Shown here: piece after piece, positions 19,906 to 42,837 of the stretch
Position numbering within the stretch: position 1 is the first letter of the stretch
Layout: every line of letters begins with the position of its first letter
Virus record (IMG/VR): IMGVR_UViG_2576861193_000004
Span: 42,259-106,258 of that record
Reading direction: 5' to 3' (one strand)
Source: a virus
Lineage: Duplodnaviria; Heunggongvirae; Uroviricota; Caudoviricetes
Length of the DNA: 64,000 nucleotides
The notes under the pieces: generated by a model
Seen by the model: the letters and a program-made list of their open reading frames with translations, nothing else
Databases searched by the model: none
What the model was told of the DNA's origin: nothing
Made by a program: the position numbers and the translations under genes

Positions 19906-21465
19906 ATGACTGTTCGGATTGTATCTAACGCAGTAAATGCACTTATTTCTGGCGCAGATGACAAGGTAAAGCAACTGGTGCAACAGATGTTGAGCTACGA
20001 AGTCGAGACTGGCGACTGGAAGGGCACAAGCACGATGTTCAACTGGAGTAAAAACTCGTTCCCTGCTGGCTTTGCCAAGCCTGTAGCGGCGAACTTGAAC
20101 AAGGCGGGCATCAAATGTGTTCATATCCGCAAAGACAAAGCCCCGGCGCTTGGAAAGCCAAATCCGGCGGTCAACCCATTCCCATACAATCCTGATTATG
20201 CATATCAGGATCAGACTGTGGAAACACTGGTTCGAGAGGGAATGATGATTGCGCAGATCGCTACTGGTGGCGGGAAATCTAATGTTGCCTGCAAAGCAGC
20301 TGCACGTATCGGTCGAATGACATTATTTTTAACAACCCGCTCTGTTCTGATGTTTCAGATGGCCGAAAACTTCCAGAGATCCATCGACTACCGCGCCGAA
20401 AATGGCGAACCGTGGTTAAAAGACCAAAAGGTTGGAGTCATTGGCTCGGGTGAGTTCCAGGTATCACGACATATCAACGTCGCTACAGTTCAAACTCTGG
20501 CAAGTTTCCTTGAAGAACCACCACGCGATGCAACTCCAGATAAGAAGAGCTACCACCTCAAACGTCGGGACTTGGTGAAACGCTTCCTTTCAAGTGTGTC
20601 TCTTCTTATTCTGGAAGAGGCGCATGAGTCTTCAGGCTCTAATTTCTATGACATCGCCAGATTATGTGCGAACGCAGACTATCGCCTGGCGCTTACGGCA
20701 ACGCCGTTCATGAAGGATTCTACGGAAGCCAACATGCGTCTGATGGCAGTGGCCGGGCGAATTGAAATAAAAGTCACGGAAAAGTATCTGATTGATAGAG
20801 GCATTCTGGCAAAGCCATACTTCCTTTATCATAAAGTTGCCTACAAGCCGGACGAGGCCAGAATCAAGGCAGAACTTGCCAACAAACACCTCAATTTTAG
20901 AGTAGGTATGAGCACTGCCTACCAAAAGGCTTATCAGTTGGGGATCGTGTATAATTTGGGACGTAATGAGGCCATTGTTCGCGAAGCATTGCTCTATAAG
21001 CAACATTCTCTCAATTGTATGACTCTGGTTCGTCTTAAACGCCACGGGCAAATCCTGATGGAAATGATGAAAGAGTCCGGCCTTAGAGTTGACTTCATTT
21101 ATGGGGAATCGAACCAGTCGACAAGGCAAGCAAAGCTGAACAGTTTAGCGTCTGGCGACATAGATGTTTTAATAGGCTCGACTATTCTGGATGTCGGTGT
21201 TGATGTGCCAAACGTTGGTGCGGTCATTCTTGCTGGTGGTGGGAAAGCAGAAGTTGAAATGAGACAACGTGTCGGTCGTGGCTTACGAGCCAAGAAGAAT
21301 CAGGCAAACGTGTGTTTTGTCACTGATTTCATTGACATTAGCAACAAATACCTGTTGTCTCACTCTTATGAGCGAAAACACATCATCGACACCACACCTG
21401 GCTTTGCAGAAGGTGTATTGCCTGTTGATGGCGCATTCGATTTTGGAGTTCTGAAACGAGATTAG
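19906..21465 (+). CDS. SF2 DEAD/DEAH-box DNA helicase
   Basis: 519 aa; Walker A ATGGGKS, DEAH-like LEEAHE, TATP motif, QRVGRGLR motif VI; RBS aggaaagagg upstream. Confidence 0.75.
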   Translation: MTVRIVSNAVNALISGADDKVKQLVQQMLSYEVETGDWKGTSTMFNWSKNSFPAGFAKPVAANLNKAGIKCVHIRKDKAPALGKPNPAVNPFPYNPDYAYQDQTVETLVREGMMIAQIATGGGKSNVACKAAARIGRMTLFLTTRSVLMFQMAENFQRSIDYRAENGEPWLKDQKVGVIGSGEFQVSRHINVATVQTLASFLEEPPRDATPDKKSYHLKRRDLVKRFLSSVSLLILEEAHESSGSNFYDIARLCANADYRLALTATPFMKDSTEANMRLMAVAGRIEIKVTEKYLIDRGILAKPYFLYHKVAYKPDEARIKAELANKHLNFRVGMSTAYQKAYQLGIVYNLGRNEAIVREALLYKQHSLNCMTLVRLKRHGQILMEMMKESGLRVDFIYGESNQSTRQAKLNSLASGDIDVLIGSTILDVGVDVPNVGAVILAGGGKAEVEMRQRVGRGLRAKKNQANVCFVTDFIDISNKYLLSHSYERKHIIDTTPGFAEGVLPVDGAFDFGVLKRD

Positions 21466-21467
21466 TT

Positions 21468-21746
21468 ATGAGCGAAAAGAAAACAACTTATTGCCAAGTG
21501 GCATTGTCTGATAAGGCCAATGAAAAACTTGGAAAATTTCAAATAAAACTCAAAGAGAAAAAAATCAAGATGTCTAAGGCTGAAGTTATCAATGCCATTC
21601 TGGAGACGATGACTATGGCTGAATTTGACAAAGTCACATCTGCCGTTGGGGTTTCCGCTAAGACGCGTGAGAAAATCATGCGCATCTATGAGAACTCCAA
21701 TATGACAAAAAAAGATCTAGAGGAAATACTGAGCAGGTTGCCGTAA
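21468..21746 (+). CDS. hypothetical small protein
   Basis: 92 aa ORF starting 3 nt after helicase stop. Confidence 0.3.
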   Translation: MSEKKTTYCQVALSDKANEKLGKFQIKLKEKKIKMSKAEVINAILETMTMAEFDKVTSAVGVSAKTREKIMRIYENSNMTKKDLEEILSRLP

Positions 21747-21811
21747 CATTTCATATTTACCCCCTATCTACTAATTCTATGATGTGCTCACTTGTTAGAA
21801 AGGAGCACATC

Positions 21812-22378
21812 ATGAGTTGGTTAAAAGAATTATCATTTGTTGACACCACTGGCGCTAAGAAAAATCATTCTTTCTGGAAAGTCAGCGATCCTTCTGATTT
21901 TCTTGTTGGTGCTAATGCTGCTTTTGAATTGCTTAACTTTTATCAACGTTATCCTGAAATGAAACACAGTCCACTCCTGTACAGAATAACAAACGATATG
22001 AATAGGTCTGGTTTATTATCAAGTGAGTCAGCGAAAGGCTTTTTTAGCAAAATTACGCCACACATATCATTCGATTCAGCAAACGAAATTGATTATCTAC
22101 CCACGAAACCTCAAGAACAATTATCTGTACCACCTGAGAAAAAAGAAAGACGAATTTCCAGCATTGAAAATATATCGAAAGAGCTTCGCACAACAACGTT
22201 GAGGCTGCTGAACTTTCTTACGCTACTTAATTGGATAGATGATCAAACATTGATTCCATCAACCGATGCGTTGGATAACAGAGTCCTTAGGCTGAACAAA
22301 AAATCGCAATTTGGTTTTGTGTTCACCAAAAAAGGTGAAGATTTAATCAAAAGAAAATATAGATTATTGAATGATTAA
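21812..22378 (+). CDS. hypothetical protein
   Basis: Start set at MSWLKELSF (ATG 21812) preceded by GGAG; ORF track start 21779 would lie inside an inverted repeat. Confidence 0.3.
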   Translation: MSWLKELSFVDTTGAKKNHSFWKVSDPSDFLVGANAAFELLNFYQRYPEMKHSPLLYRITNDMNRSGLLSSESAKGFFSKITPHISFDSANEIDYLPTKPQEQLSVPPEKKERRISSIENISKELRTTTLRLLNFLTLLNWIDDQTLIPSTDALDNRVLRLNKKSQFGFVFTKKGEDLIKRKYRLLND

Positions 22379-22523
22379 TAGTCTACATGCAGGTGTATGA
22401 GAGCACCTGCATGTGACACTCATCACATTTTTTGAAGCACACACCTCCGGCTGAAAAAATTTCTTGATTGGCTGAACGATATTTGTAGGCTTTTCAATTG
22501 ATAACTAAGGTCGGATACTGTAG

Positions 22524-23012
22524 ATGAGTATTTCTATAAACAAAATAATTAACTCTTTACGACATAAAATATCACATGGAAAAGATGTTCTTTTTAAAGA
22601 AAAATATTATCTATTCAACTTAGAGCCGTACAAATGTACAAAATTTTATATCACTCGGAACCGTAAATATTCAGTTTCAATCACAAAAGACATGAAGAAA
22701 ATCTCTTCAGAAGAGTACTTCATATCACATATTTATATCTACCCATTTAAATTAGAACCATTAAATATAATTCTTCCTACAATAAAAGGGGTTGAACTTG
22801 AAGGTTATACTTTAAGCTCTAACTTTAATGATATGGGTGTACAAAAACCAGGGACAAGGTCATACTACGCCTACAAAGTAAAATGCAATAACTACAACGC
22901 ACTTAACATGCTAATCAGCAAACTTGAAACGGAGATAGTCGAAGGAAATCTAAATGATGATCATGAAAAATTAGAACAAATAGAAAAACTTAGAAAGTGT
23001 GATGTTAAATAA
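22524..23012 (+). CDS. hypothetical protein (AT-rich, Lys/Tyr/Asn-rich)
   Basis: 162 aa; first gene of translationally coupled trio; lower GC than flanks. Confidence 0.3.
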   Translation: MSISINKIINSLRHKISHGKDVLFKEKYYLFNLEPYKCTKFYITRNRKYSVSITKDMKKISSEEYFISHIYIYPFKLEPLNIILPTIKGVELEGYTLSSNFNDMGVQKPGTRSYYAYKVKCNNYNALNMLISKLETEIVEGNLNDDHEKLEQIEKLRKCDVK

Positions 23013-23627
23013 TTGGATTATCATGATATGAAAATGAAACTTTCGTTACTCCTTGCTTGTATATACCTCCCGGCGTTTCCCGCCAACGCATTATCAGATT
23101 TCGTCTCTGACATGCAAAAAACGTACAGCATGTTTACCTCCGAAGACGTAGTAGAATACAAATCACGAGGTCTGAATCAGCCAGTTTGGTTCAGATTCTC
23201 AGACAACGCAGAAGAAACAATACTTAATGGAGGAAAAGAAAGATTACGGTTGCAAATTAACGGGACCGCTGTACCAGAAAACGTTAATGTAAGCTCTGAC
23301 GAAGCCATGAAGCCATCTGGAATTGTTTTAGAAGTTCAAGACGGCACACTTTACTGTGATGAAATGGCTACAACAGGTTGCCAAGTAAACATTAGGGTTG
23401 GCAATGAAGAGCCTATCGTTACTTACGCCAAGGCTGAAGGGAATACAAGTGGAAAGGTATTGTTTATCGATGAAAATATCTCAAAACGTATCGTTCGTGA
23501 CATACAGAAAACAGCTAACTCTAAATCCGTCGATAAAAAAATCTATGTTGAGGTTCCCTTCTTTGTCGTTGGTAACAAAGAATTTAAATTTGGGTTGCTG
23601 AAAACACCTCTAAGAGTATCAGAATGA
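23013..23627 (+). CDS. hypothetical secreted protein (Sec signal peptide)
   Basis: N-terminus MKMKLSLLLACIYLPAFPANA with AxA cleavage-like site; start abuts previous stop. Confidence 0.35.
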   Translation: MDYHDMKMKLSLLLACIYLPAFPANALSDFVSDMQKTYSMFTSEDVVEYKSRGLNQPVWFRFSDNAEETILNGGKERLRLQINGTAVPENVNVSSDEAMKPSGIVLEVQDGTLYCDEMATTGCQVNIRVGNEEPIVTYAKAEGNTSGKVLFIDENISKRIVRDIQKTANSKSVDKKIYVEVPFFVVGNKEFKFGLLKTPLRVSE

Positions 23628-24148
23628 GAACATTGGACATCACCTACGGCATACCGGCTGAAGTCTGGCCGCGAGACTACGAACATGCTGAGAACATACT
23701 TATGTTCTGGCGGAAGAACAACATTCCTGTAAGAGTCACGCTTGAAGACGGTCAGGTGTTTTGCATGTACGTTCAGGGGACAATGCCTTCACGCAATAAG
23801 CTAGATTTATGCCCGATTCCATATGATAAAGAAAATCGTATAAGACTCCCACTTGAGCGCATTAGCACAATTGAATCAGGTGTAATCGATGGCATTGCTC
23901 GCGAGTTCAAAGGTAGGCTAACAATACATCCAGACTATGTTGACAATCAGCCATCACGCCGTGACTTTTTTGCGATATGTCGCAAGGCTTATCAAAACGA
24001 CCAATCTATAAGGGTCTACATGACAGACGGTCGTGAAATAGAAGGGGTGTCAAGAGGCGTTGATGCTTGCCAGGTCACTCTTAAGTTAGAAGACGGCAGA
24101 AAAATACTTGTTTTCTTCGATTGGGTTGAACGAATCCTTCCATTTTAA
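23624..24148 (+). CDS. hypothetical protein
   Basis: 174 aa; 4-nt overlap with upstream gene; followed by hairpin terminator. Confidence 0.3.
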   Translation: MRTLDITYGIPAEVWPRDYEHAENILMFWRKNNIPVRVTLEDGQVFCMYVQGTMPSRNKLDLCPIPYDKENRIRLPLERISTIESGVIDGIAREFKGRLTIHPDYVDNQPSRRDFFAICRKAYQNDQSIRVYMTDGREIEGVSRGVDACQVTLKLEDGRKILVFFDWVERILPF

Positions 24149-24160
24149 ATCTATAAGGGT

Positions 24161-24190
24161 AATAACCGGCTAAGTCCGGTTATTATTTTA
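24161..24190 (+). terminator. rho-independent terminator after accessory operon
   Basis: aataaccgg-ctaagt-ccggttatt perfect 9-bp stem followed by atttta. Confidence 0.5.
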
Positions 24191-24341
24191 CATGCCATTC
24201 ATTTAAAACTCTTTCAATGCCACCCCGTATAAATATATAAGGTTAAAGGCCCGAATTGATTATTTATTTAGGGAACACCTTCGACGATCTCGCTTTTATT
24301 TCTAGGACTTTCATCCCTGCAGAAAATTTAAAAAAAAACAC

Positions 24342-24370
24342 TTGCAATCTTTTTTCACGTATTGATAATT
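24342..24370 (+). promoter_or_regulatory. sigma70-like promoter for gene 24444-25094
   Basis: TTGCAA (24342-24347), 17-nt spacer, ATAATT (24365-24370); about 70 nt 5' UTR then AAGGA-ATG. Confidence 0.4.
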
Positions 24371-24443
24371 GAACTCGTCGAAAGCGAGCTGGCTAACGAC
24401 AGTAAAAATAAATTCATTTTAATTTTTCGTAAGGATGTCCATC

Positions 24444-25094
24444 ATGGCTAACATTATCATTTCTAAAAAGTCCATCATTGAAGCTGCTGCCATTGTATCC
24501 GACGAGCTGCGCGAAAAAGCAGATCTGGCAACTCAAACATATAACGAACATTATAAAAATGGTACGCACACAAAAGCAGACAAAGCAAACATGCAAGCTG
24601 CGACCACTAAACTTGCTTACTTCATCAACAACGTTGTGAACGCAGTAGAAGACGAAAAATTATGCTCTGTTTTCTACTATGCGATTAAAGCAAGCAAACA
24701 AGCGCCAGAAGTATTTTTCCGTGATGCAATGACTAATAGTTATTCTCTGGAAAAACTGGTTTATCTGGTTAAATCAATTAAATCTGGTAAATGCGTTTAC
24801 TCCATCGCTGATATGTCTGGATCTCGTGTATTCGCTTTAATCGATATGATTAACGACGAGATCGACACGTTCACCAATGGCGCTGTTTTCGATTTAATGA
24901 ATGAAGCTAAAAAAGCGTGCGAAATTAAATTGGACGCTGGCTATACTCAAGCCAACCAGTTGATCAATCTTTGCGAACGTCTTGGACTTGTTGAGAAAGT
25001 CAAAGGAATGGGAAGCGCAAAAGCTGGTACGCAGCAATATCGCTTTATTAAAAATGATTTCTATAACTATCTGGCTGATGCTTTCAAAGCGTAA
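24444..25094 (+). CDS. hypothetical protein (stand-alone, own promoter and terminator)
   Basis: Start set at MANIIISKK with RBS AAGGA; 217 aa; no family recognised. Confidence 0.35.
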   Translation: MANIIISKKSIIEAAAIVSDELREKADLATQTYNEHYKNGTHTKADKANMQAATTKLAYFINNVVNAVEDEKLCSVFYYAIKASKQAPEVFFRDAMTNSYSLEKLVYLVKSIKSGKCVYSIADMSGSRVFALIDMINDEIDTFTNGAVFDLMNEAKKACEIKLDAGYTQANQLINLCERLGLVEKVKGMGSAKAGTQQYRFIKNDFYNYLADAFKA

Positions 25095-25107
25095 TTAATG
25101 GAATCTT

Positions 25108-25128
25108 GCGCCCACTATGGGCGCTTTT
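25108..25128 (+). terminator. rho-independent terminator (copy 1 of duplicated hairpin)
   Basis: gcgcccactatgggcgc + tttt. Confidence 0.6.
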
Positions 25129-25141
25129 AAGGAGCTTAATC

Positions 25142-25372
25142 ATGTTTATTCTTATCGCTGGCGTTAACGTGCGCAATGAATATTTTGTTAATCGCATCGC
25201 TGGGATCGCTGGTTACGCTGGGCGCGCAGTCGAGTTCATAAATGAAACAACGCGAAGAATTGACTTATTGAACGACCAGGAGCGAAAAAAAGCAGACGTG
25301 AATGACGCTGATATATTTTTAATGTTGAAAGCGTTTGTAGAAATGGGATTCAAAATTAGTTTACACAAATAA
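25142..25372 (+). CDS. hypothetical small protein
   Basis: 76 aa from ATG 25142 with RBS aaggag; flanked by identical hairpins. Confidence 0.25.
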   Translation: MFILIAGVNVRNEYFVNRIAGIAGYAGRAVEFINETTRRIDLLNDQERKKADVNDADIFLMLKAFVEMGFKISLHK

Positions 25373-29229: not shown

Positions 29230-29995
29230 ACCTGTCTTGTTCGCTATACATGTTGTGTTTTCTTCGTGTTTTATCTGTCTCAACCTCTCTATAGGCGTTA
29301 ATGCTCACTCCTTCCAGAATGTTCTATACGGCGACTATTTCTGTTGGTGAATTGGGTGTGTTGTTTTCTCTGTCGGTGTATGTGGTTTCGTTCGTTTTGC
29401 GGTGGTTCTTCTATGGGGTGTTCTCGTCGTTTTGGTGATTGTTCTTCTCCGTGTATGGAGTAATGGCAGGTGGGCGATTCCTTTCGTTATTGTGTTTGAG
29501 TTGTTTGTCTGGAGTGTGAAAGGCTTTTGTAGTTATTCGTGTATTGGGTAATGGCGTTTCCCGTGATTGTTATGTTTCGTGTCTTTTGGGATTGAGAGAA
29601 ACCTTGCGGTTACAGGCTTCGTTGGGGTTTCAGTGATTCTGGTGTTTCTTCGCTGTTTGGGTAATGGCGTGTCGTGGGTATCGCGCGTATGAATGTTTTC
29701 GGATTGCCTGTGAAAGTTAGGTTGGTTGTCCGGTAGCCTGGGGAGAAGAGGTGGGTCTTTTCGGTAGCCTGCCATAAAGAGGTTGGTTGTTTTGGGGAAT
29801 GGCATGTGTGTTATTTAGTTGTTTTGTTATGCCTGAAAATAAGTTGTTTATATGGTTGTGTAACGCAACGGGAACGATTTTGAGCGTGTGTTTTTGTTGG
29901 TGGTGTGTTGGGTCGTCTGTGGTGAAAATTGGACGCTGTGGCGCTGTCTGCTGCGTAGAATTACGGGTATAAGAAGTGATGTGTGAATACGTCAA
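29230..29995 (+). other. ORF-free tract with extreme G+T strand bias (C+A-rich on minus strand)
   Basis: Plus strand almost devoid of A and C over about 0.75 kb; only low-complexity ORFs on minus strand; contains CGGTAGCCTG..AGAGGTKGGT motif also present at 26555-26620. Confidence 0.5.
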
Positions 29996-30192
29996 TTTTT
30001 TAGACCAAATCGGGTGAAAGCGTTGACGTTTCGTTGATCTGTTATTCAGTTGTTTTCTTATTGGTATAAACAACGTTAACCTATTGATATTTAAAGGTGT
30101 GATTGCAGGTATGGAAGGAGAGTAGTGGCGATCAACAGATTCTTATAGAAAAGAATCAAATTGTGACCGCCATTATCAATAAGTTGCAACCG

Positions 30193-30762
30193 TTAGTTGT
30201 TCAGATAAACATTTGGAACACGGACGTAGAAGTTCCTGTCGCCGGTAAGTTCCAGAGTAATGTTAATGTCATTACCATTGTCTAGTGTAGCCGTTGCTCT
30301 ATAGAACTTATCCGTCACCTTGTCCTCTATTGTCACCTTCATACATTTTGGTGCAGTCGAACCGTTATTCTCTTTCAGAATAGTTGTCACGAGAGGGCAG
30401 GCTGCTTCTTCAAGAGCAACCTCGTCCTTGTGTGGGATGCCGATGAAGATAATCCAAGCCAGCGACGCAACGATTATGATAAATGGCACTCTGCTGCCTT
30501 TTGTAATAGTCGCGCGCTTCCAGAGATAGACAGGCAGGAGGAATACCCCCCATAGAATTGAAGGTGGTTCACAGCCAGACTCCGATAGAGCCATTCTGTC
30601 AGCTACTAACAAACCGATGGTAGTTACACCCCCAATTATAATAGCGTAATTGGTATACTCTTCCGGCGATACTCCAAAGAAGAAAGGCATGAACGCTAGA
30701 ATCCACGCATAAATGTTATTCAGAGGTTTTGTTTGTTGGTTCTGGGTTTCCATCACATCCAT
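30193..30762 (-). CDS. hypothetical membrane protein (N-terminal TM helices + C-terminal soluble domain)
   Basis: Hydrophobic segments IYAWILAFMPFFFGV, AIIIGGVTTIGLLVA, ILWGVFLLPVYLW, FIIIVASLAWIIFIGI. Confidence 0.35.
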   Translation of the reverse strand: MDVMETQNQQTKPLNNIYAWILAFMPFFFGVSPEEYTNYAIIIGGVTTIGLLVADRMALSESGCEPPSILWGVFLLPVYLWKRATITKGSRVPFIIIVASLAWIIFIGIPHKDEVALEEAACPLVTTILKENNGSTAPKCMKVTIEDKVTDKFYRATATLDNGNDINITLELTGDRNFYVRVPNVYLNN

Positions 30763-31597: not shown

Positions 31598-33631
31598 TTA
31601 CTTAACCTGGTGGCCTGGTTTAGCACCAGCATCCGGGCTTAACAGGAAGATATCTTTCCCGCCGGGGCCAGCAGCCATCACCATGCCTTCGGAGATACCG
31701 AAGCGCATTTTACGCGGAGCCAGGTTAGCCACCATAATGGTGTGACGACCAATCAGTGCCTGTGGGTCTGGATAAGCAGAACGGATGCCTGAGAAGACAT
31801 TACGCTTTTCACCACCGAGATCCAGTGTCAGACGCAGCAGTTTGTCAGAACCTTCGACAAACTCCGCGTTTTCAATCAGCGCCACACGCAGGTCAACTTT
31901 GGCGAAGTCGTCAAAGGTGATGGTTTCCTGAATCGGGTCGTCAGCCAGTGGGCCAGTTACCGGTGCAGCTGTGGCTTTCACTTCTTCTTTGGATGCTTCC
32001 ACCAGTGCTTCCACCTGTTTCATATCGATACGGTTATACAGTGCCTTGAACGGATTCACTTTATGGCCCAGCAGCGGTTGCTGGATACCATCCCAGGTCA
32101 GTTCTGTATTCAGGAATGCTTCTGCACGTTCAGTCAGTTTCGGCAGTACCGGTTTCAGGTACGTCATCAGCACGCGGAACAGGTTAATGCCCATAGAGCA
32201 AATCGCCTGCAGGTCGGCATCGCGGCCTTCCTGCTTCGCCACCACCCACGGAGCCTGTTCATCAACATAGCGGTTAGCCAGGTCAGCCAGTGACATGATT
32301 TCACGGATAGCTTTGCCAAATTCGCGGCTTTCCCACGCTTCACCAATCACTTCAGCGGCATCAGTGAAGGTTTTGTACAGTTGCGGGTCAGCCAGTTCGC
32401 TTGCCAGCACGCCGTCAAAACGTTTGTTGATAAAACCTGCATTACGGGAGGCCAGGTTAACCACTTTGTTCACGATATCGGCATTCACGCGCTGAACAAA
32501 ATCTTCCAGGTTGAGATCGATATCATCAATGCGCGAAGAGAGTTTCGCAGTGTAGTAGTAACGCAGGCTGTCGGCGTCAAAATGATTCAGCCAGGTGCTG
32601 GCTTTAATAAAGGTGCCGCGAGACTTGGACATCTTCGCGCCGTTCACCGTCACATAGCCGTGAACAAACAGGTTGGTCGGCTTGCGGAAGTTGCTGCCTT
32701 CCAGCATGGCAGGCCAGAACAGGCTGTGGAAGTAAACGATATCTTTACCGATGAAGTGGTACAGCTCGGCGGTGGAGTCTTTCTTCCAGTATTCGTCGAA
32801 GCTGGTAGTGTCGCCGCGTTTGTCGCACAGATTCTTGAAGGAACCCATGTAGCCAATCGGCGCGTCCAGCCAGACGTAGAAATATTTGCCCGGTGCGTTC
32901 GGAATTTCAAAACCGAAGTACGGCGCATCGCGGGAGATATCCCACTGTTGCAGGCCAGATTCAAACCACTCCTGCATTTTGTTTGCCACCTGCTCCTGCA
33001 ACGCACCGCTGCGGGTCCATGCCTGCAACATTTCGCTGAAAGAGGGCAGATCAAAGAAGAAGTGTTCAGAATCACGCATTACCGGCGTAGCGCCAGAAAC
33101 CACCGATTTCGGCTCGATCAATTCAGTCGGGCTATATGTTGCGCCGCAGACTTCACAGTTATCGCCGTATTGATCTGGCGCTTTACATTTAGGACAGGTG
33201 CCTTTTACAAAACGGTCCGGCAGGAACATGCCTTTTTCCGGGTCGTACAACTGAGAGATAGTGCGGTTTTTAATAAAACCGTTCTCTTTCAGGCGAGTAT
33301 AGATAAGCTCAGACAACTGACGGTTCTCTTCGCTGTGCGTCGAGTGATAGTTGTCATAGCTGATGTTAAAGCCTGCGAAATCAGTCTGGTGTTCCTGACT
33401 CATTTCGCCAATCATCTGCTCCGGTGTGATACCAAGCTGCTGTGCTTTCAGCATGATCGGCGTACCGTGGGCATCGTCGGCACAGATGAAATTAACCTCG
33501 TGGCCGCGCATTCGCTGGTAACGAACCCAGACATCAGCCTGGATGTGCTCCAGCATATGGCCGAGGTGGATTGAGCCGTTAGCGTACGGCAGCGCGCACG
33601 TCACCAGAATTTTCTTCGCGACTTGGGTCAT
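31598..33631 (-). CDS. metG: methionine--tRNA ligase
   Basis: Translation from [26 protein letters not shown] (HIGH motif) through KMSKS to C-terminal tRNA-binding domain ending [10 protein letters not shown]; 677 aa from ATG 33631; ORF track N-terminal extension rejected. Confidence 0.95.
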
Positions 33632-33788
33632 AGTAGGCATTACTTCTTTGTAGTGAAAAGGGGCTTGATAGTAACAAAATGGCCTTATGTCTGCCATGTG
33701 ATAACAGCATTTCTCATAAATGATTAAATGTCGTAGCTGGAGTACACTACAAGGCGACAATTGCGCAAATTAAAATAAAGGAGACGGG

Positions 33789-34889
33789 ATGAGCGAGTCC
33801 AAATCGCCGGATGCCCTGAGAGCAATGGTAGCCGGTACGCTGGCTAATTTTCAGCACCCAACCCTGAAACACAACCTGACTACGCTTAAAGCGTTACACC
33901 ATGTTGCGTTGATGGATGACACACTGCATGTCGAACTAATCATGCCTTTCGTGTGGAATAAGCCTTTTGAAGACCTGAAAGAGCAATGTAGTGGTGATCT
34001 GCTCCGTATCACTGGCGCAAAGGCTATTGACTGGAAGCTGTCGTACAACATTGCCACGCTTAAGCGCGTCAAAAACCAACCAGGCATTAATGGCGTTAAG
34101 AACATTATCGCCGTCAGCTCAGGCAAGGGCGGCGTGGGTAAATCCTCCACGGCGGTAAACCTGGCACTGGCGTTGGCTGCTGAAGGTGCGAAAGTTGGTA
34201 TTTTGGATGCCGATATCTATGGTCCATCAATTCCAACCATGCTGGGCGCGGAAAACCAACGTCCAACCTCACCTGACGGTACTCACATGGCACCTATCAT
34301 GTCTCATGGCCTGGCAACCAACTCTATTGGTTATCTGGTCACCGACGACAATGCAATGGTGTGGCGTGGACCGATGGCCAGCAAGGCGCTGATGCAGATG
34401 TTGCAGGAAACTCTATGGCCTGATCTGGACTATCTCGTTCTCGATATGCCGCCGGGCACTGGTGATATTCAGTTGACGCTGGCGCAGAACATTCCTGTAA
34501 CTGGTGCGGTTGTGGTAACTACGCCGCAAGACATCGCGCTGATCGATGCGAAGAAAGGCATTGTGATGTTCGAAAAAGTCGAAGTGCCGGTACTGGGTAT
34601 CGTCGAAAACATGAGTGTGCATATTTGCAGTAACTGCGGTCATCACGAGCCAATTTTTGGCACCGGTGGCGCACAGAAACTGGCCGAGAAATACAACACG
34701 CAGTTGTTAGGCCAAATGCCACTTCATATCTCTCTTCGTGAAGATCTGGATAACGGAACACCAACCGTTATTAGTCGTCCAGATAGCGAATTTACGGCTA
34801 TTTATCGTGACCTCGCAGATCGCGTTGCTGCCCAAATGTATTGGCAAGGTGAAGTAATACCTGGCGAAATCGCATTCCGCGCAGTGTGA
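33789..34889 (+). CDS. apbC: Fe-S cluster carrier ATPase ApbC/Mrp
   Basis: 366 aa; Walker A SGKGGVGKS, CxxC-type motif CSNCGH; divergent from metG with a 157-bp intergenic region as in E. coli. Confidence 0.9.
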   Translation: MSESKSPDALRAMVAGTLANFQHPTLKHNLTTLKALHHVALMDDTLHVELIMPFVWNKPFEDLKEQCSGDLLRITGAKAIDWKLSYNIATLKRVKNQPGINGVKNIIAVSSGKGGVGKSSTAVNLALALAAEGAKVGILDADIYGPSIPTMLGAENQRPTSPDGTHMAPIMSHGLATNSIGYLVTDDNAMVWRGPMASKALMQMLQETLWPDLDYLVLDMPPGTGDIQLTLAQNIPVTGAVVVTTPQDIALIDAKKGIVMFEKVEVPVLGIVENMSVHICSNCGHHEPIFGTGGAQKLAEKYNTQLLGQMPLHISLREDLDNGTPTVISRPDSEFTAIYRDLADRVAAQMYWQGEVIPGEIAFRAV

Positions 34890-36804: not shown

Positions 36805-38367
36805 ATGAAAATGACAAGTATTCAACAACGTGCAGAGCTTCATCGTCAAATCTGGCAAATTGCTAACGATGTCAGGGGTTCGGTCGATGGATGGGATTTT
36901 AAGCAATACGTTCTGGGCGCACTTTTCTACCGTTTTATCAGCGAAAATTTTTCCAGTTATATTGAAGCCGGTGATGACAGTATCTGTTATGCGAAACTGG
37001 ATGACAGCGTAATTACTGATGACATTAAAGACGATGCCATCAAAACTAAAGGCTACTTCATCTACCCCAGTCAGCTTTTCTGCAACGTAGCTGCGAAAGC
37101 AAATACTAATGACAGACTGAATGCAGATTTAAACAGCATCTTCGTTGCTATCGAAAGTTCTGCTTACGGTTATCCTTCAGAAGCAGACATCAAAGGTTTG
37201 TTTGCTGATTTCGATACCACCAGTAACCGCCTGGGTAACACCGTTAAAGATAAAAATGCCCGCCTGGCTGCGGTTCTGAAAGGGGTTGAAGGGTTAAAAC
37301 TTGGTGACTTCAACGAACATCAGATTGACCTGTTCGGTGATGCCTATGAGTTCCTGATTTCTAACTATGCGGCAAATGCCGGTAAGTCAGGCGGTGAGTT
37401 CTTTACACCGCAGCACGTCTCCAGGCTGATTGCACAACTGGCAATGCATGGCCAGACCCACGTTAACAAAATCTACGACCCGGCAGCGGGTTCCGGCTCA
37501 CTGTTGTTGCAGGCGAAAAAACAGTTTGATAACCACATCATCGAAGAAGGCTTTTTCGGTCAGGAAATCAACCATACGACCTATAACCTGGCGCGTATGA
37601 ACATGTTTTTGCACAATATCAACTACGACAAGTTTGATATCAAGCTGGGTAATACACTGACTGAGCCGCACTTCAGAGATGAAAAACCGTTTGACGCCAT
37701 CGTATCTAACCCACCGTATTCGGTGAAATGGATTGGCAGCGATGACCCGACGCTGATTAACGATGAGCGTTTTGCCCCGGCTGGCGTTCTGGCCCCCAAA
37801 TCCAAAGCTGACTTTGCGTTTGTATTACATGCACTGAACTATCTTTCTGCCAAAGGTCGTGCTGCGATTGTCTGCTTCCCGGGTATTTTTTACCGTGGCG
37901 GCGCGGAGCAGAAAATCCGTCAGTATCTGGTCGATAATAACTATGTCGAAACCGTGATTTCACTGGCACCGAACCTGTTCTTTGGCACCACCATTGCAGT
38001 AAACATTCTGGTGCTGTCTAAACATAAAACGGATACCAACGTTCAGTTTATTGACGCCAGCGAACTGTTCAAAAAAGAGACTAACAACAATATCCTGACC
38101 GATGCCCATATCGAACAGATTATGCAGGTATTTGCCAGCAAGGAAGATGTTGCTCATCTGGCGAAATCTGTCACGTTTGAGACCGTTGTCGCGAATGACT
38201 ATAACCTGTCGGTAAGCAGCTATGTGGAAGCGAAAGATACTCGCGAAATTATCGATATCGCTGAGTTGAATGCAGAACTGAAAACCACGGTCAGCAAAAT
38301 CGACCAGTTGCGTAAAGATATTGATGCGATTGTGGCTGAAATTGAAGGCTGCGAGGTGCAGAAATGA
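36805..38367 (+). CDS. hsdM: Type I restriction-modification methyltransferase subunit
   Basis: 520 aa; AdoMet motif [10 protein letters not shown], catalytic NPPY (VSNPPYS); start of next gene overlaps stop by 4 nt. Confidence 0.95.
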
Positions 38368-39599
38368 GCGAGTTGAGTTATCTGGAAAAATTGCTGGATG
38401 GGGTTGAGGTTGAGTGGTTGCCATTGGGGAAACTAGGTGAATTAGTTCGTGGAAATGGATTGCCTAAGTCTGATTTTACCGAATCTGGGGTTCCTGCCAT
38501 ACACTATGGTCAGATATATACTTTTTACGGATTATCTACTGAAACAACAAAGTCATTTGTTTCCCATGAAACGGCGAAGAAGCTTAAAAAGGTTAACTCT
38601 GGTGATGTTGTTATTACTAACACAAGCGAAAATTTTACTGATGTTGGTAAGGCGCTTGTTTATCTAGGTAAAGAGCAAGCTGTTACTGGTGGCCATGCAA
38701 CTATTTTCAAGCCAAATAGCACTATTATTGGGAAATACTTTGCCTATTTCACGCAAACGGATTCTTTTGCAAATGAGAAAAGGAAATACTCCAAGGGAAC
38801 TAAAGTAATTGATGTGTCTGCATCGGATATGGCGAAAATTATTATCCCTATCCCCTGTCCGGAAAATCCCAAAAAATCCCTTGCTATCCAGTCTGAAATC
38901 GTTCGGATTCTGGACAAATTTACTGCACTTACCGCTGAGCTTACCGCTGAGCTTACCATGCGTAAAAAACAGTACAACTACTATCGCGACCAATTGCTGA
39001 GTTTTAAAGAAGGTGAGGTTGAGTGGAAAACTTTGGGAGAAGTGGCTCAATACTCGAAAACAAGAATTAGTTTCGAACTACTTGATGAAAGGAATTATGT
39101 TGGCGTAGATAATCTGCTGCAAAACAGAGCAGGAAAATCATTATCTAATCATGTACCCACATCAGGTAAATTAACGGAGTTTATACCTAACGATATACTG
39201 ATTGGGAATATCCGCCCATATTTGAAAAAAATTTGGCAAGCAGATTGTATCGGTGGAACAAATGGCGATGTATTGGTTATTCGTTGCATAGATAGCTCAA
39301 TAAATACCAGATATCTATATCAGATTTTGGCAGATGACAAATTCTTTGAATACAACATGCAGCATGCTAAAGGAGCAAAAATGCCGCGTGGCAGTAAAGA
39401 GGATATAATGAAATACCCAATCCCTGTACCGCCACTCACCTTGCAAGCTCGCATTGTCGAAATACTCAACAAATTCGATACCCTGACAAACTCCATCACT
39501 GAAGGTCTTCCGCGTGAAATCGAATTACGCCAGAAACAATACGAATACTACCGTGATTTACTGTTCAGTTTCCCAAAACCTGAAACTGTCAGTAATTAA
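38364..39599 (+). CDS. hsdS: Type I restriction-modification specificity subunit
   Basis: 411 aa; conserved N-terminal, central ([42 protein letters not shown]) and C-terminal ([35 protein letters not shown]) regions separating two variable target-recognition domains. Confidence 0.9.
38931..38954 (+). repeat. tandem 12-bp repeat (ACCGCTGAGCTT x2) encoding TAEL-TAEL in the HsdS central spacer
   Basis: accgctgagctt accgctgagctt read directly in sequence. Confidence 0.8.
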
Positions 39600-39720
39600 T
39601 TGACCATTGCTACCGACCGGGCCACCTTAACACCCGGTCTGTATATAGACTATTTTTTACGCGCCGGAAGTCACTCTTAACGCCCTTCCGGCCCTTGCCA
39701 GGCGGCACAAAGGATGCGCT

Positions 39721-42700
39721 ATGACTCATCAAACACACACCATTGCTGAATCCAATAACTTTATCGTCCTTGATAAGTACATCAAAGCTGAGCAAACAAG
39801 CGACAGCTACCAGAGCGAATCGGACCTGGAACGTGAACTGATTCAGGACCTGCGGAATCAGGGTTATGAATTTATTTCCGTAAAATCACAGTCGGCAATG
39901 CTGTCCAATGTTCGGGAACAGCTTCAGAGCCTCAATGGTGTGATGTTTAATGACAGCGAGTGGCGGCGCTTCACGGAGCAGTATCTGGACAATCCCAGCG
40001 ATGGTATTCTGGATAAGACCCGTAAAATCCATATCGACTATATCTGCGACTTTATTTTTGACGACGGGCGTCTTGAGAACATCTATCTGATCGATAAAAA
40101 GAATCTCATGCGCAACAAAGTGCAGATTATCCAGCAGTTTGAACAGGCAGGTTCTCATGCTAACCGTTATGACGTCACGATCCTGGTTAATGGCTTGCCT
40201 CTGGTGCAAATCGAACTGAAAAAGCGCGGCGTGGCGATTCGTGAGGCTTTCAACCAGATACATCGTTACAGCAAAGAGAGTTTTAACAGCGAAAATTCCC
40301 TGTTTAAGTATCTGCAACTGTTTGTCATTTCTAACGGCACCGATACCCGTTATTTTGCCAACACCACAAAGCGCGATAAAAACAGTTTTGACTTCACCAT
40401 GAACTGGGCGAAATCAGACAACACGCTGATTAAAGACCTCAAAGACTTTACCGCTACCTTTTTCCAGAAACATACCCTGCTTAATGTTCTGGTGAACTAC
40501 AGCGTGTTTGACAGTAGTCAGACGCTACTGGTGATGCGACCGTACCAGATTGCAGCTACCGAACGGATCTTATGGAAAATCAACAGCTCCTATAAAGCGA
40601 AAAACTGGTCTAACCCCGAAAGCGGTGGCTTTATCTGGCACACCACTGGTTCCGGTAAAACACTGACCAGCTTTAAAGCCGCGCGTCTGGCAACTGAACT
40701 GGACTTTATTGATAAAGTCTTCTTCGTGGTCGACAGGAAAGACCTCGATTACCAGACCATGAAGGAATATCAGCGTTTTTCGCCAGACAGCGTCAACGGC
40801 TCGGAAAATACCGCAGGTCTTAAACGAAATCTGGATAAGGACGATAACAAAATTATCGTCACCACTATTCAGAAACTTAATAACCTGATGAAAGCAGAAA
40901 GCGACCTGCCTGTATACAATCAGCAAGTGGTGTTTATATTTGATGAATGCCACCGCAGCCAGTTTGGAGAAGCGCAGAAAAACCTGAAGAAGAAATTCAA
41001 ACGCTATTATCAGTTTGGTTTTACCGGCACCCCTATTTTCCCGGAAAATGCCTTAGGCTCAGAAACGACCGCCAGCGTATTTGGTCGTGAATTGCATTCG
41101 TATGTAATTACCGATGCGATTCGTGACGAAAAAGTGCTCAAATTCAAGGTGGACTACAACGATGTGCGGCCACAGTTTAAGTCTTTAGAGACAGAAACTG
41201 ACGAGAAAAAACTGAGTGCGGCTGAAAATCAGCAGGCGTTTCTTCATCCCATGCGTATTCAGGAAATCACGCAATATATCCTGAACAACTTCCGCCAGAA
41301 GACTCACCGTACTTACCCCGGCTCCAAAGGTTTTAATGCCATGCTGGCAGTAAGCAGCGTGGATGCCGCGAAAGCCTATTACGCGACGTTTAAACGGTTA
41401 CAAGAGGAAGCCGCTAATAAATCTGCTACCTATAAACCACTGCGTGTTGCGACAATCTTCTCCTTTGCCGCCAATGAAGAACAAAATGCCATTGGTGAAA
41501 TTTCCGATGAAACTTTTGATACCAGCGCAATGGACAGCAGTGCTAAAGAGTTTCTTGACGCTGCAATTCGTGAGTATAACAGCTATTTTAAAACTAACTT
41601 CAGCACCGACAGTAACGGTTTTCAGAACTACTATCGTGATTTAGCCCAACGGGTTAAAAATCAGGATATCGATCTGTTAATTGTCGTTGGGATGTTTTTA
41701 ACCGGCTTCGACGCTCCAACATTGAACACGCTATTCGTCGATAAAAACTTGCGTTTTCACGGCCTGATGCAGGCATTCTCCCGTACCAACCGCATTTATG
41801 ACGCTACTAAAACCTTCGGTAACATCGTCACTTTTCGGGATCTGGAACGCTCAACCATTGATGCCATAACGCTGTTTGGTGATAAAAATACTAAAAATGT
41901 GGTGTTAGAAAAGAGTTATGCAGAGTATATGGAAGGCTTTACTGATGCTGCTACAGGTGAAGCTAAACGCGGCTTTATGGCAGTAGTTTCAGAACTGGAA
42001 CAACGGTTCCCTGACCCTGCCAGTATTGAAAGTGAAAAAGAGAAGAAAGACTTCGTTAAACTGTTTGGCGAATACCTGCGTGCCGAGAACATCCTGCAAA
42101 ACTATGATGAATTTGCCACGCTGAAAGCCCTGCAACAAATCGATCTTAGCGATCCTGTTGCGGTAGAAAAATTCAAAGAAGAACATTATGTGGATGATGA
42201 AAAGTTCGCTGAATTGCAAACGATTCGTCTCCCTGCTGAACGCAAGATTCAGGATTATCGTTCTGCCTATAACGATATTCGTGACTGGCAGCGCCGCGAG
42301 AAAGAAGCTGATAAAAAAGAAAAATCAACCACTGACTGGGATGACGTGGTTTTTGAGGTCGATTTGCTGAAGTCTCAGGAAATAAACCTGGATTATATCC
42401 TTGGACTGATTTTCGAACACAACAGACAAAATAAAGGCAAGGGCGAAATGATCGAAGAGGTCAAACGCTTAATTCGTTCAAGCCTGGGGAACCGGGCGAA
42501 AGAGGGCCTGGTGGTCGATTTTATTCAGCAAACGAACCTGGATGATTTACCAGACAAAGCCAGCATCATTGACGCGTTCTTTACCTTTGCTCAACACGAA
42601 CAGCTACGTGAAGCAGAAGCGTTGATTAAAGAAGAAAATCTCAATGAAGAGGCGGCGAAACGCTATATTCGCACGTCTTTAAAACGCGAATACGCCACCG

Positions 42701-42837
42701 AAAATGGCACAGAATTAAACGAGACATTACCAAAACTTAGTCCGTTAAACCCGCAATATAAAACGAAAAAACAGACGGTTTTCCAGAAAATCGTCACGTT
42801 TATTGAAAAGTTCAAAGGAGTAGGTGGGCAGATATAG
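39721..42837 (+). CDS. hsdR: Type I restriction enzyme R subunit
   Basis: 1038 aa; helicase motifs [12 protein letters not shown] ([11 protein letters not shown]), endonuclease-type N-terminal region; 120-bp gap after hsdS with no intervening gene. Confidence 0.95.

Follow-up and report, generated by a model that had tools for sequence, protein, structure and literature searches.

The closest described relatives of the locus reported here are operons that end in a gene for a repressor of the FljA family (Pfam PF03614). In the fljBA operon of Salmonella the repressor gene is distal and the proximal gene encodes an exported protein, the flagellin, and in the fljB-fljA operon of the Salmonella Typhi plasmid pBSSB1 the repressor gene is carried on a mobile element (PMC2652032). 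The characterised FljA proteins act after transcription, blocking the translation of fliC messenger RNA (mRNA) (PMC2652032; bioRxiv 10.1101/2025.10.27.684867). Here we describe a three-gene operon (genes 1, 2 and 3) in a stretch of 64,000 nucleotides (nt) from the IMG/VR virus record IMGVR_UViG_2576861193_000004, referred to below as the window. The region is one backbone transcription unit that ends in a fixed gene, a member of the FljA family, preceded by a cargo slot. The repressor gene is again distal and follows a gene for an exported protein, but that protein is an orphan of 199 amino acids (aa) carrying a Sec signal rather than flagellin; the locus has no flagellin gene, invertible promoter or hin/pinR, and non-flagellated hosts are among its carriers. 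A second point of comparison is the prophage morons that encode envelope proteins, such as bor and lom of lambda, cor of phi80 and N15 and llp of T5. Like these classical morons, the cargo described here consists of accessory, variably present and compositionally deviant genes on a temperate phage, with an exported product. It differs from them in showing no sequence or structural similarity, in that the gene 2 product is not a lipoprotein, and in that the putative promoter and the terminator belong to the backbone.

The window can be assigned to an E. coli phage-plasmid of the SSU5/pHCM2 (pMT1) type because of its plasmid and phage matches and its neighbouring genes. A 4.1-kb query around the operon is 99.5% identical to the E. 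coli plasmid p15ODDR and matches 770 plasmid records, mostly non-mobilizable and of about 105-115 kb; the phages matched are SSU5, the E. coli phage-plasmid Cyrano (pLF82) and Klebsiella relatives. Nearby genes encode two ParB proteins, a DEAD-box helicase and a tape-measure protein. Phage-plasmids of the SSU5 type are frequently met in clinical E. coli and Klebsiella, in Salmonella Typhi (pHCM2) and in Y. pestis (pMT1). SSU5, pMT1 and Cyrano/pLF82 share with the window the order ParB, ParB, helicase, 92-aa gene, slot, fljA-like gene and 216-aa gene. They also share the terminator and an envelope-protein gene adjoining the fljA-like gene (SSU5_122/SSU5_121 in SSU5 and CYRAN_115/CYRAN_114 in Cyrano), but the content of their slot is not homologous to genes 1 and 2.

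The initial annotation, made by eye, recognised no family in any of the three proteins. For gene 3 this proved wrong, since its product matches PF03614 (repressor of phase-1 flagellin, Flag1_repress) over the full length of the family, with an E-value of 9.1e-81 and a score of 270.1 bits against a cut-off of 24, residues 5-171 covering profile positions 1-170 of 170. The protein family phrog_1444, labelled 'transcriptional repressor', is matched at an E-value of 6e-98, and the C-terminal half gave weak Hfq/LSM-like matches. Searches of plasmid records with tblastn found gene 3 in 831 records (Klebsiella 341, Escherichia 229, Enterobacter 92, Yersinia 62 and Salmonella 60), with relatives also on Shigella phage-plasmids, compared with 65 records for gene 2 and 23 for gene 1. 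Its orthologues include SSU5_121, CYRAN_114 and a gene on Y. pestis pMT1, and a genome scan for fljA returned only relatives of the phage-plasmid type. Gene 3 had been counted as part of a moron; this distribution is that of a core gene, and by sequence we place it among the core genes of SSU5-type phage-plasmids, with its membership of the FljA family secure. Full-text searches of the available literature turned up no paper on FljA in these elements. FljA-like genes with 54-63% identity also occur on two metagenome-assembled contigs labelled Bacillota and Candidatus Fimivivens (L032/L033), labels that reflect either a binning error or a wider host range.

The limits of the exchangeable part were given by comparison with Cyrano and a second relative (L023), whose flanks are 97% identical to the window. 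In blastn alignments similarity was lost at 22492 and regained at 23636, and the exchangeable unit is therefore 22493-23635, which starts one base after a conserved -10-like hexamer and stops inside gene 3 (Table 1). The three genes had been read together as a recently acquired moron. The accessory nature of the DNA, its variation between relatives and the presence of a gene for a Sec-exported protein all stand, but the insert is not self-contained and its three-gene boundaries were wrong. Presence in some and absence from other near-identical relatives was seen for genes 1 and 2 only, the promoter-like element and the terminator both lie in shared DNA outside the cassette, and deviant composition is a property of the cassette and not of gene 3.

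What occupies the slot differs between lineages, and Cyrano, SSU5, pMT1 and the relatives L017, L019 and L021 all carry genes other than this cassette. Cyrano/pLF82 has an inverted gene for a 266-aa lipoprotein (CYRAN_115), and SSU5 and pMT1 have a 140-aa lipoprotein (SSU5_122, 'putative lipoprotein'). Klebsiella, Cronobacter and E. coli lineages combine a gene 1 relative with a Sec-signal protein of 117-118 aa. In L021 a gene 1 relative stands alone, preceded by genes for a membrane zinc-ribbon protein of 189 aa and a lipoprotein of 140 aa, and in Klebsiella and other lineages gene 2 is found without gene 1. We examined seven loci with a gene 2 relative in front of the FljA-like gene; the spacing ranged from a 4-nt overlap to a 6-nt gap, and gene 1 was missing from four of the seven. 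The position of gene 1 relatives is equally constant, and they are followed by a gene of the gene 2 type, by the gene for the 117-aa Sec protein or by nothing. The most remote gene 2 relative (P0024) belongs to a distant lineage, where it occupies this slot on the opposite strand, next to a remote gene 1 relative that abuts the fljA-like gene. The two families thus co-occur repeatedly, yet each occurs without the other.

Two further features of the cargo emerged from these comparisons. One domain, phrog_2320, with the motif LLDPD...F...YGGYTG, is common to the Sec proteins of 117-118 aa and to the N-terminal part of the CYRAN_115-type lipoprotein of 266 aa (examples at 4631-4987 of L017 and at 4605-4958 and 5071-5871 of L023), so that these two alternative cargos are related to each other. 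In two relatives an extra small open reading frame (ORF) with a Sec signal, of 103 or 99 aa, lies between the fljA-like gene and the conserved terminator (L012, 4391-4702, minus strand; L005, 6131-6430, plus strand), so that in this unit the repressor gene has insertions of exported cargo before and after it. A remote relationship between gene 2 and the SSU5_122 lipoprotein, both of which weakly touch IalB, was considered and rejected at an hhalign probability of 0.7%.

All three predicted ORFs are present, at 22524-23012 (162 aa), 23013-23627 (204 aa from a TTG start) and 23624-24148 (174 aa). For gene 2 we find the ATG at 23028, which gives 199 aa, the most likely start by sequence comparison rather than the TTG at 23013. 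The largest cluster of homologues, with 226 member sequences, is 199 aa long and begins with MKMK. Annotation by the Prokaryotic Genome Annotation Pipeline (PGAP) likewise gives 199 aa in the related plasmid pAVS0747-B, and in p15ODDR it gives 165 aa, with the signal peptide lost. Of the tight junctions described initially, the ATGA overlap of genes 2 and 3 at 23624-23627 is confirmed, but genes 1 and 2 neither abut nor overlap at 23012/23013, as the start at 23028 leaves 15 nt between them.

The signal peptide proposed for the middle protein was borne out, with the tripartite form MKMKLSLLLACIYLPAFPANA|LSD and a hydrophobic segment that is kept in homologues. Its layout is MKMK, LSLLLACIYLPAF and PANA|LSD, with a Kyte-Doolittle maximum of 1.93 at residues 5-19. 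A charged n-region, an h-region, small residues at -3 and -1 and the lack of a lipobox cysteine are as expected of a Sec substrate of signal peptidase I; Cys11 is not conserved and lies too near the N-terminus for a lipobox. In homologues with 47-80% identity the N-terminal sequence diverges and the hydrophobicity and the A-x-A site are retained. Because the signal peptide is conserved in this way and the gene is under purifying selection (see below), the gene 2 protein is very probably exported through Sec. The mature protein has two invariant cysteines, C110 and C118, which probably form a disulfide bond. The gene 2 family is small, a profile finding nine proteins among 1.84 billion representative proteins, and it is restricted to this slot in this one family of elements.

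Gene 1 encodes a cytoplasmic protein. The full 162-aa ORF is supported by the conservation of its N-terminus, MSISIN and the residues that follow, at 57-80% identity. PGAP calls the gene as 106 aa in both p15ODDR (L001, 4293-5228) and pAVS0747-B (L026, 3108-4043). Direct searches with gene 1 found only three clusters, and a profile that included two remote relatives from neighbouring loci extended this to 15 clusters of 162-201 aa, of which gene 1 is a short member. The motifs PF...LSSNFN...GY are conserved in the family, and cross-matches tie together phrog_25050, 29155 and 31250. All six clusters whose context was examined are at the same slot position on contigs of the SSU5 type, and the family appears to be a fast-evolving orphan family confined to this slot. 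A match of gene 1 to YmgB/AriR (E-value 0.0036, 23 residues) fell below the cut-off and was dismissed.

Low GC content and a usage rich in lysine, asparagine and tyrosine had been ascribed to all three genes. Measured against the 60 ORFs of at least 100 aa in the window (mean GC 0.476, standard deviation (SD) 0.050), gene 1 has this character, with the lowest GC of the 60 (0.288, or 3.8 SD below the mean) and 13% lysine, 8% asparagine and 8% tyrosine, but across the unit there is a gradient instead, with gene 2 at 0.400 (-1.5 SD) and gene 3 at an ordinary 0.444 (-0.6 SD). The enrichment in these residues likewise holds for gene 1 only, and gene 3 is rich in arginine. GC is low across 21.5-25.5 kb of the window, and the genes on either side of the unit are also low, at 0.358 for the upstream 199-aa gene and 0.391 for the downstream 219-aa gene. 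The orientation had been described as opposite to that of most genes, which is correct, the unit being part of a plus-strand block (19906-25372) inside a mostly minus-strand region.

Between lineages the non-synonymous divergence (dN) is 0.34 for gene 1, 0.34-0.44 for gene 2, 0.17-0.28 for gene 3 and 0.05-0.07 for the helicase. Since synonymous sites are saturated at these distances, the ratio to synonymous divergence (dS) was taken from a closer pair, the window and pAVS0747-B. For gene 2 this gave a dN/dS of 0.14, which indicates purifying selection, and for gene 1 a value of 1.7 that stems from about seven non-synonymous changes and one synonymous change and is not significant. In the same pair dS is 0.011 for the helicase and gene 1, 0.28 for gene 2, 0.45 for gene 3 and 0.09 for the 219-aa gene, a mosaic that points to the exchange of alleles within the unit.

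The DNA upstream of the slot was aligned for nine relatives across two overlapping alignments. After the stop codon of the 199-aa gene these contain a conserved hairpin (dG -24.7 kcal/mol, z -4.46), which had been described as an upstream terminator belonging to the three genes, a hairpin at about 22388-22418 plus a run of T. The hairpin itself is real. Across eight lineages 94% of the aligned cells can pair and six of the 11 base pairs have changed on both sides; none of 500 shuffles reached the observed covariation, and controls slid along the alignment paired in 14-47% of cells. It is not the cassette's own, however, and the T-run does not directly adjoin it. A 16-bp palindrome, TGTGACACTCATCACA, sits between the two, so there is no canonical intrinsic terminator upstream, and the hairpin is probably a terminator or an RNA-stabilising structure of the upstream unit. 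Much the same can be said of the downstream terminator, placed initially at 24161-24190. A hairpin at 24161-24184 followed by ATTTT is present (dG -15.3, z -3.4; near-invariant in 10 lineages), but it belongs to the conserved backbone. Both hairpins lie in DNA common to relatives with other cassettes and are therefore not the cassette's own, and a consensus scanner called neither of them as a terminator.

The palindrome is a perfect match to the CRP consensus and the sole one in the window, where 0.09 would be expected. Seven of the nine aligned relatives, including L012, retain the two half-sites intact, L015 and L021 differ by one base, and the spacer varies; kept half-sites with a variable spacer are the signature of a protein-binding site and not of an RNA stem. 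Other conserved elements of this region include the invariant block ACCTCCGGCTGAAAAAA and the promoter-like element that precedes the cassette, in which the TTGA of the -35 and the T-A-n-n-n-T of the -10 are invariant alignment columns. From these columns we infer a promoter role for the element.

Expression data are available for the Cyrano/LF82 lysogen, in which CYRAN_113 to CYRAN_118 are orthologous to positions 19906-25094 of the window. Published RNA-sequencing (RNA-seq) values, given as log2(fpkm+5) with fpkm the fragments per kilobase per million (PMC9928086, S1 Table), were 4.2 for the fljA-like gene CYRAN_114 in stationary lysogeny broth (LB), 6.9-7.4 in Dulbecco's modified Eagle medium (DMEM) and 8.0-8.1 in macrophages. 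The upstream gene CYRAN_116 gave 2.3-3.7, 4.0-5.8 and 5.6-5.9 under the same three conditions, and the downstream gene CYRAN_113 gave 2.3-2.8, 2.8-3.2 and 3.4-5.7 (PMC9928086). From these data CYRAN_114 RNA is 3-8-fold higher than that of CYRAN_116 in DMEM and after 1 h in macrophages and about 4-fold higher at 6 h, and 16-30-fold higher than that of CYRAN_113 in DMEM and at 1 h and about 5-fold higher at 6 h (PMC9928086). Both CYRAN_114 and the lipoprotein gene CYRAN_115 are about 15-20-fold higher inside macrophages than in stationary LB (PMC9928086). The fljA-like gene of Cyrano is thus expressed in lysogens in a condition-dependent manner, and the pattern would fit a promoter located between CYRAN_116 and CYRAN_114, with CYRAN_114 followed by a terminator. 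The highest expression in the CYRAN_113-118 block is that of CYRAN_117, the orthologue of the 92-aa gene at 21468-21746 of the window, which the authors list as a moron (PMC9928086).

Table 1. Features of the cargo slot, its genes and the flanking control elements (positions in the window).
Feature	Position	Strand	Description
Conserved hairpin	22385-22414	+	stem of 11 bp, loop of 8 nt; follows the stop codon of the 199-aa gene
CRP-consensus palindrome	22412-22427		TGTGA-N6-TCACA, TGTGACACTCATCACA, then T6; putative protein-binding operator
Promoter-like element	22464-22491	+	TTGATT-16 nt-TAGGCT; in the conserved flank
Swappable cargo cassette	22493-23635		1143 bp; genes 1 and 2 plus 12 nt (four codons) from the start of gene 3
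Gene 1	22524-23012	+	162-aa cytoplasmic orphan protein, phrog_25050; AT-rich
Gene 2	23028-23627	+	199-aa precursor of a predicted periplasmic protein, phrog_18942
Gene 2 signal peptide	23028-23090	+	cleavage ANA|LSD; mature protein of 178 aa, beta-rich
Gene 3	23624-24148	+	174-aa FljA family protein (PF03614, phrog_1444), putative RNA-binding translational repressor
Intrinsic-terminator-like hairpin	24156-24191	+	core AATAACCGG/CCGGTTATT at 24161-24184, then ATTTTA; marks the end of the unit
Invariant direct repeats	24147-24162, 24231-24246		two copies of AAATnTATAAGGnTAA; bracket the terminator

Taken as a whole, it is rather likely that the swappable two-gene cassette and the core FljA-type gene behind it work together as one transcribed unit that combines envelope cargo with an RNA repressor. 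Transcription would start at the TTGATT-16-TAGGCT element, downstream of the hairpin and the CRP-type palindrome, and would end at the hairpin at 24161-24184. Homologous recombination, in the promoter region on one side and at the 5' end of the fljA-like gene on the other, could swap the cassettes. The FljA-like protein would bind the leader of a specific mRNA and block its translation, as FljA does in Salmonella; the target may be fliC in flagellated hosts and otherwise another host or phage mRNA. The exported cargo would act in the cell envelope during lysogeny, for example by altering the surface or excluding superinfecting phages, and together with the FljA-like protein it would make up a module for lysogenic conversion. 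As every alternative cargo of the slot is an exported protein or a lipoprotein, our best guess for genes 1 and 2 is envelope-acting lysogenic-conversion cargo, possibly for superinfection exclusion, co-expressed with an RNA-binding repressor. We know of no exclusion or serum-resistance phenotype for the cassette.

Several observations weigh against this reading. Neither gene 1 nor gene 2 has a match in Pfam, NCBIfam or PADLOC, and nothing rose above noise in a sequence search of the PDB. The AlphaFold2 models of genes 1 and 2 are of low confidence (pLDDT 57.5 and 56.6), with an ordered core that is a beta-alpha-beta-beta-alpha domain in gene 1 and a beta-sandwich-like domain plus one helix in gene 2; Foldseek comparison of these models with BFVD gave TM-scores below 0.5 and only uncharacterised proteins, at the level of noise. 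On the control side, the promoter-like hexamers were not called by the consensus scanner. The centre of the CRP-type site (22419.5) would fall near -77 to -80 from the start predicted from the putative -10 at 22486-22491, which is not a classical activating position of class I or class II (such as -41.5, -61.5 or -71.5), and the region with the 199-aa gene and the palindrome is absent from SSU5 and pMT1. CYRAN_114 has its lowest level in stationary LB and a higher one in glucose-rich DMEM, the opposite of simple activation by CRP-cyclic AMP. Cyrano, the source of the RNA-seq data, moreover has a different cassette, and its authors do not list CYRAN_114 as a moron, its level in LB being less than 5-fold above background (PMC9928086). 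The last point concerns the target of the repressor, as relatives of gene 3 are kept on phage-plasmids of the non-flagellated Klebsiella pneumoniae, Y. pestis and Shigella. None of these three has flagella, and fliC is therefore unlikely to be the sole target of gene 3.

A serious rival is self-regulation of the element. The FljA-like protein may control the life cycle of the phage-plasmid itself rather than host flagellin, by acting on the translation of a phage mRNA or via the adjacent conserved TATAAGG repeats, with genes 1 and 2 as unrelated passengers. We regard this as possible, though on balance unlikely. In its favour, phage-plasmids of non-flagellated hosts also have it as a core gene (Klebsiella 341 records, Y. 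pestis 62, and Shigella), the flanking non-coding DNA carries invariant motifs, and identity to LT2 FljA is only about 35%, a figure to be taken as a lead. No flagellin, hin/pinR or other recombinase gene is annotated or called within about 3-6 kb of gene 3 in p15ODDR and the relatives examined, and an fljB-operon context under an invertible promoter was not found, the genes upstream being genes 1 and 2 and the other neighbours over that distance encoding ParB, a helicase and hypothetical proteins. Against it, gene 3 matches its family over the full length, the characterised proteins of that family target fliC mRNA, and most of its hosts are flagellated Enterobacteriaceae.

The non-coding DNA that follows the fljA-like gene (24147-24434) is conserved better across lineages than coding DNA. 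The two exact copies of the AAATnTATAAGGnTAA repeat are the only ones in the window, and the same stretch holds the invariant blocks ATTTATTTAGGnAACACCTTCG and TTTATTTCTAnGAC. It also contains a promoter of the form CTTGCA-17-GATAAT at 24342-24369, followed by a conserved leader, for the 219-aa gene. The stretch could be an operator array or an RNA target. Rfam gave nothing at gathering thresholds, and a weak match to Ysr206 (E-value 0.0018) was not reproduced, was absent from the pMT1 locus and is considered noise.

Somewhat less probable than self-regulation, and in our view rather doubtful, is that genes 1 and 2 are the two components of an anti-phage or superinfection-exclusion system whose link to fljA is positional only, the slot simply providing expression. 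The periplasmic gene 2 protein would then block a receptor or DNA entry, with the gene 1 product as its cytoplasmic partner or regulator. A variable hotspot with exported proteins or lipoproteins in every lineage would suit such a system, as would the fast non-synonymous divergence (0.34-0.44 against 0.05 in the helicase), the mosaic of synonymous divergence that points to allele exchange and the co-occurrence of remote relatives of both genes. However, Klebsiella and other lineages have gene 2 but not gene 1, relatives of gene 1 have other partners or none, neither protein has an enzymatic or membrane domain, and the defence models of PADLOC-DB 2.0 matched none of genes 1, 2 and 3 at an E-value of 1 or below.

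A third possibility, that gene 1 is non-functional and merely decaying AT-rich filler between the promoter and gene 2, would be in keeping with the 106-aa PGAP call, the dN/dS of 1.7 against pAVS0747-B and the low-confidence structure model. We think it very unlikely, as the dN/dS figure comes from about eight substitutions, an intact ORF of 161-162 aa persists at 57% identity in Citrobacter and Salmonella despite saturated synonymous sites, and the gene belongs to a family of 15 clusters with conserved motifs. Least probable of all is the single self-contained moron, in which all three genes, recently acquired with their own terminators, would form one three-component system: the tight spacing with its ATGA overlap, the low GC over 21.5-25.5 kb and the hairpin on either side speak for it, but the ordinary GC and far wider distribution of gene 3 (831 records against 65 and 23), the cassette boundaries at 22492/23636 that split it from genes 1 and 2, and the conservation of both hairpins in relatives with other cassettes make it hardly credible.

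Some other features of the window were recorded alongside these. The 199-aa gene upstream of the unit (21779-22378, plus strand; phrog_13473) accompanies the CRP-type palindrome region wherever the latter occurs, and SSU5 and pMT1 lack it; the gene is highly divergent in the middle, and its 3' end and the intergenic DNA that follows are conserved. A complete type I restriction-modification cargo is located at 36805-42837 on the plus strand, with hsdM (520 aa), hsdS (411 aa) and hsdR (1038 aa). At 31598-34889 the methionyl-tRNA synthetase gene metG, on the minus strand, is found with a divergent apbC/mrp gene, a block also present on about 200 E. coli and Shigella plasmids of the SSU5 type at 95-99% identity. 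A stretch of about 1 kb at 29250-30200 is poor in ORFs and has an extreme strand bias, the GC skew reaching +0.48 and the AT skew -0.52. Tandem repeats are absent from it and its direct repeats are weak; it could be an origin, a packaging region or a region of non-coding RNA.

The cassette genes themselves are ordinary orphan cargo of a typical accessory cassette. The comparison now tells the backbone, consisting of the promoter region, the FljA-like gene and the terminator, apart from the exchangeable payload of genes 1 and 2, and it corrects inconsistencies in the public annotation of p15ODDR, where gene 1 is given as 106 aa and gene 2 as 165 aa. Of more interest as a lead is the conserved and widespread unit of the FljA-type repressor with its putative CRP-type operator. 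Its repressor, present in 831 plasmid records, has apparently not been studied, and the relative for which RNA-seq is available goes up about 15-fold inside macrophages. A more far-reaching interpretation, which we consider improbable at present, is that SSU5-type phage-plasmids, including pHCM2 of S. Typhi and pMT1 of Y. pestis, carry a conserved, environmentally regulated 'surface-switch' operon, in which interchangeable exported proteins are translationally coupled to an FljA-type repressor as a phage analogue of flagellar phase variation. If this were true, the families of genes 1 and 2 would constitute a new, polymorphic pair of a cytoplasmic and a periplasmic protein in the service of the switch, and host flagellin or another surface antigen would be silenced post-transcriptionally while the phage's envelope proteins are installed. 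Such a switch could allow evasion of flagellin-sensing immunity in macrophages, or the exclusion of flagellotropic and other phages.

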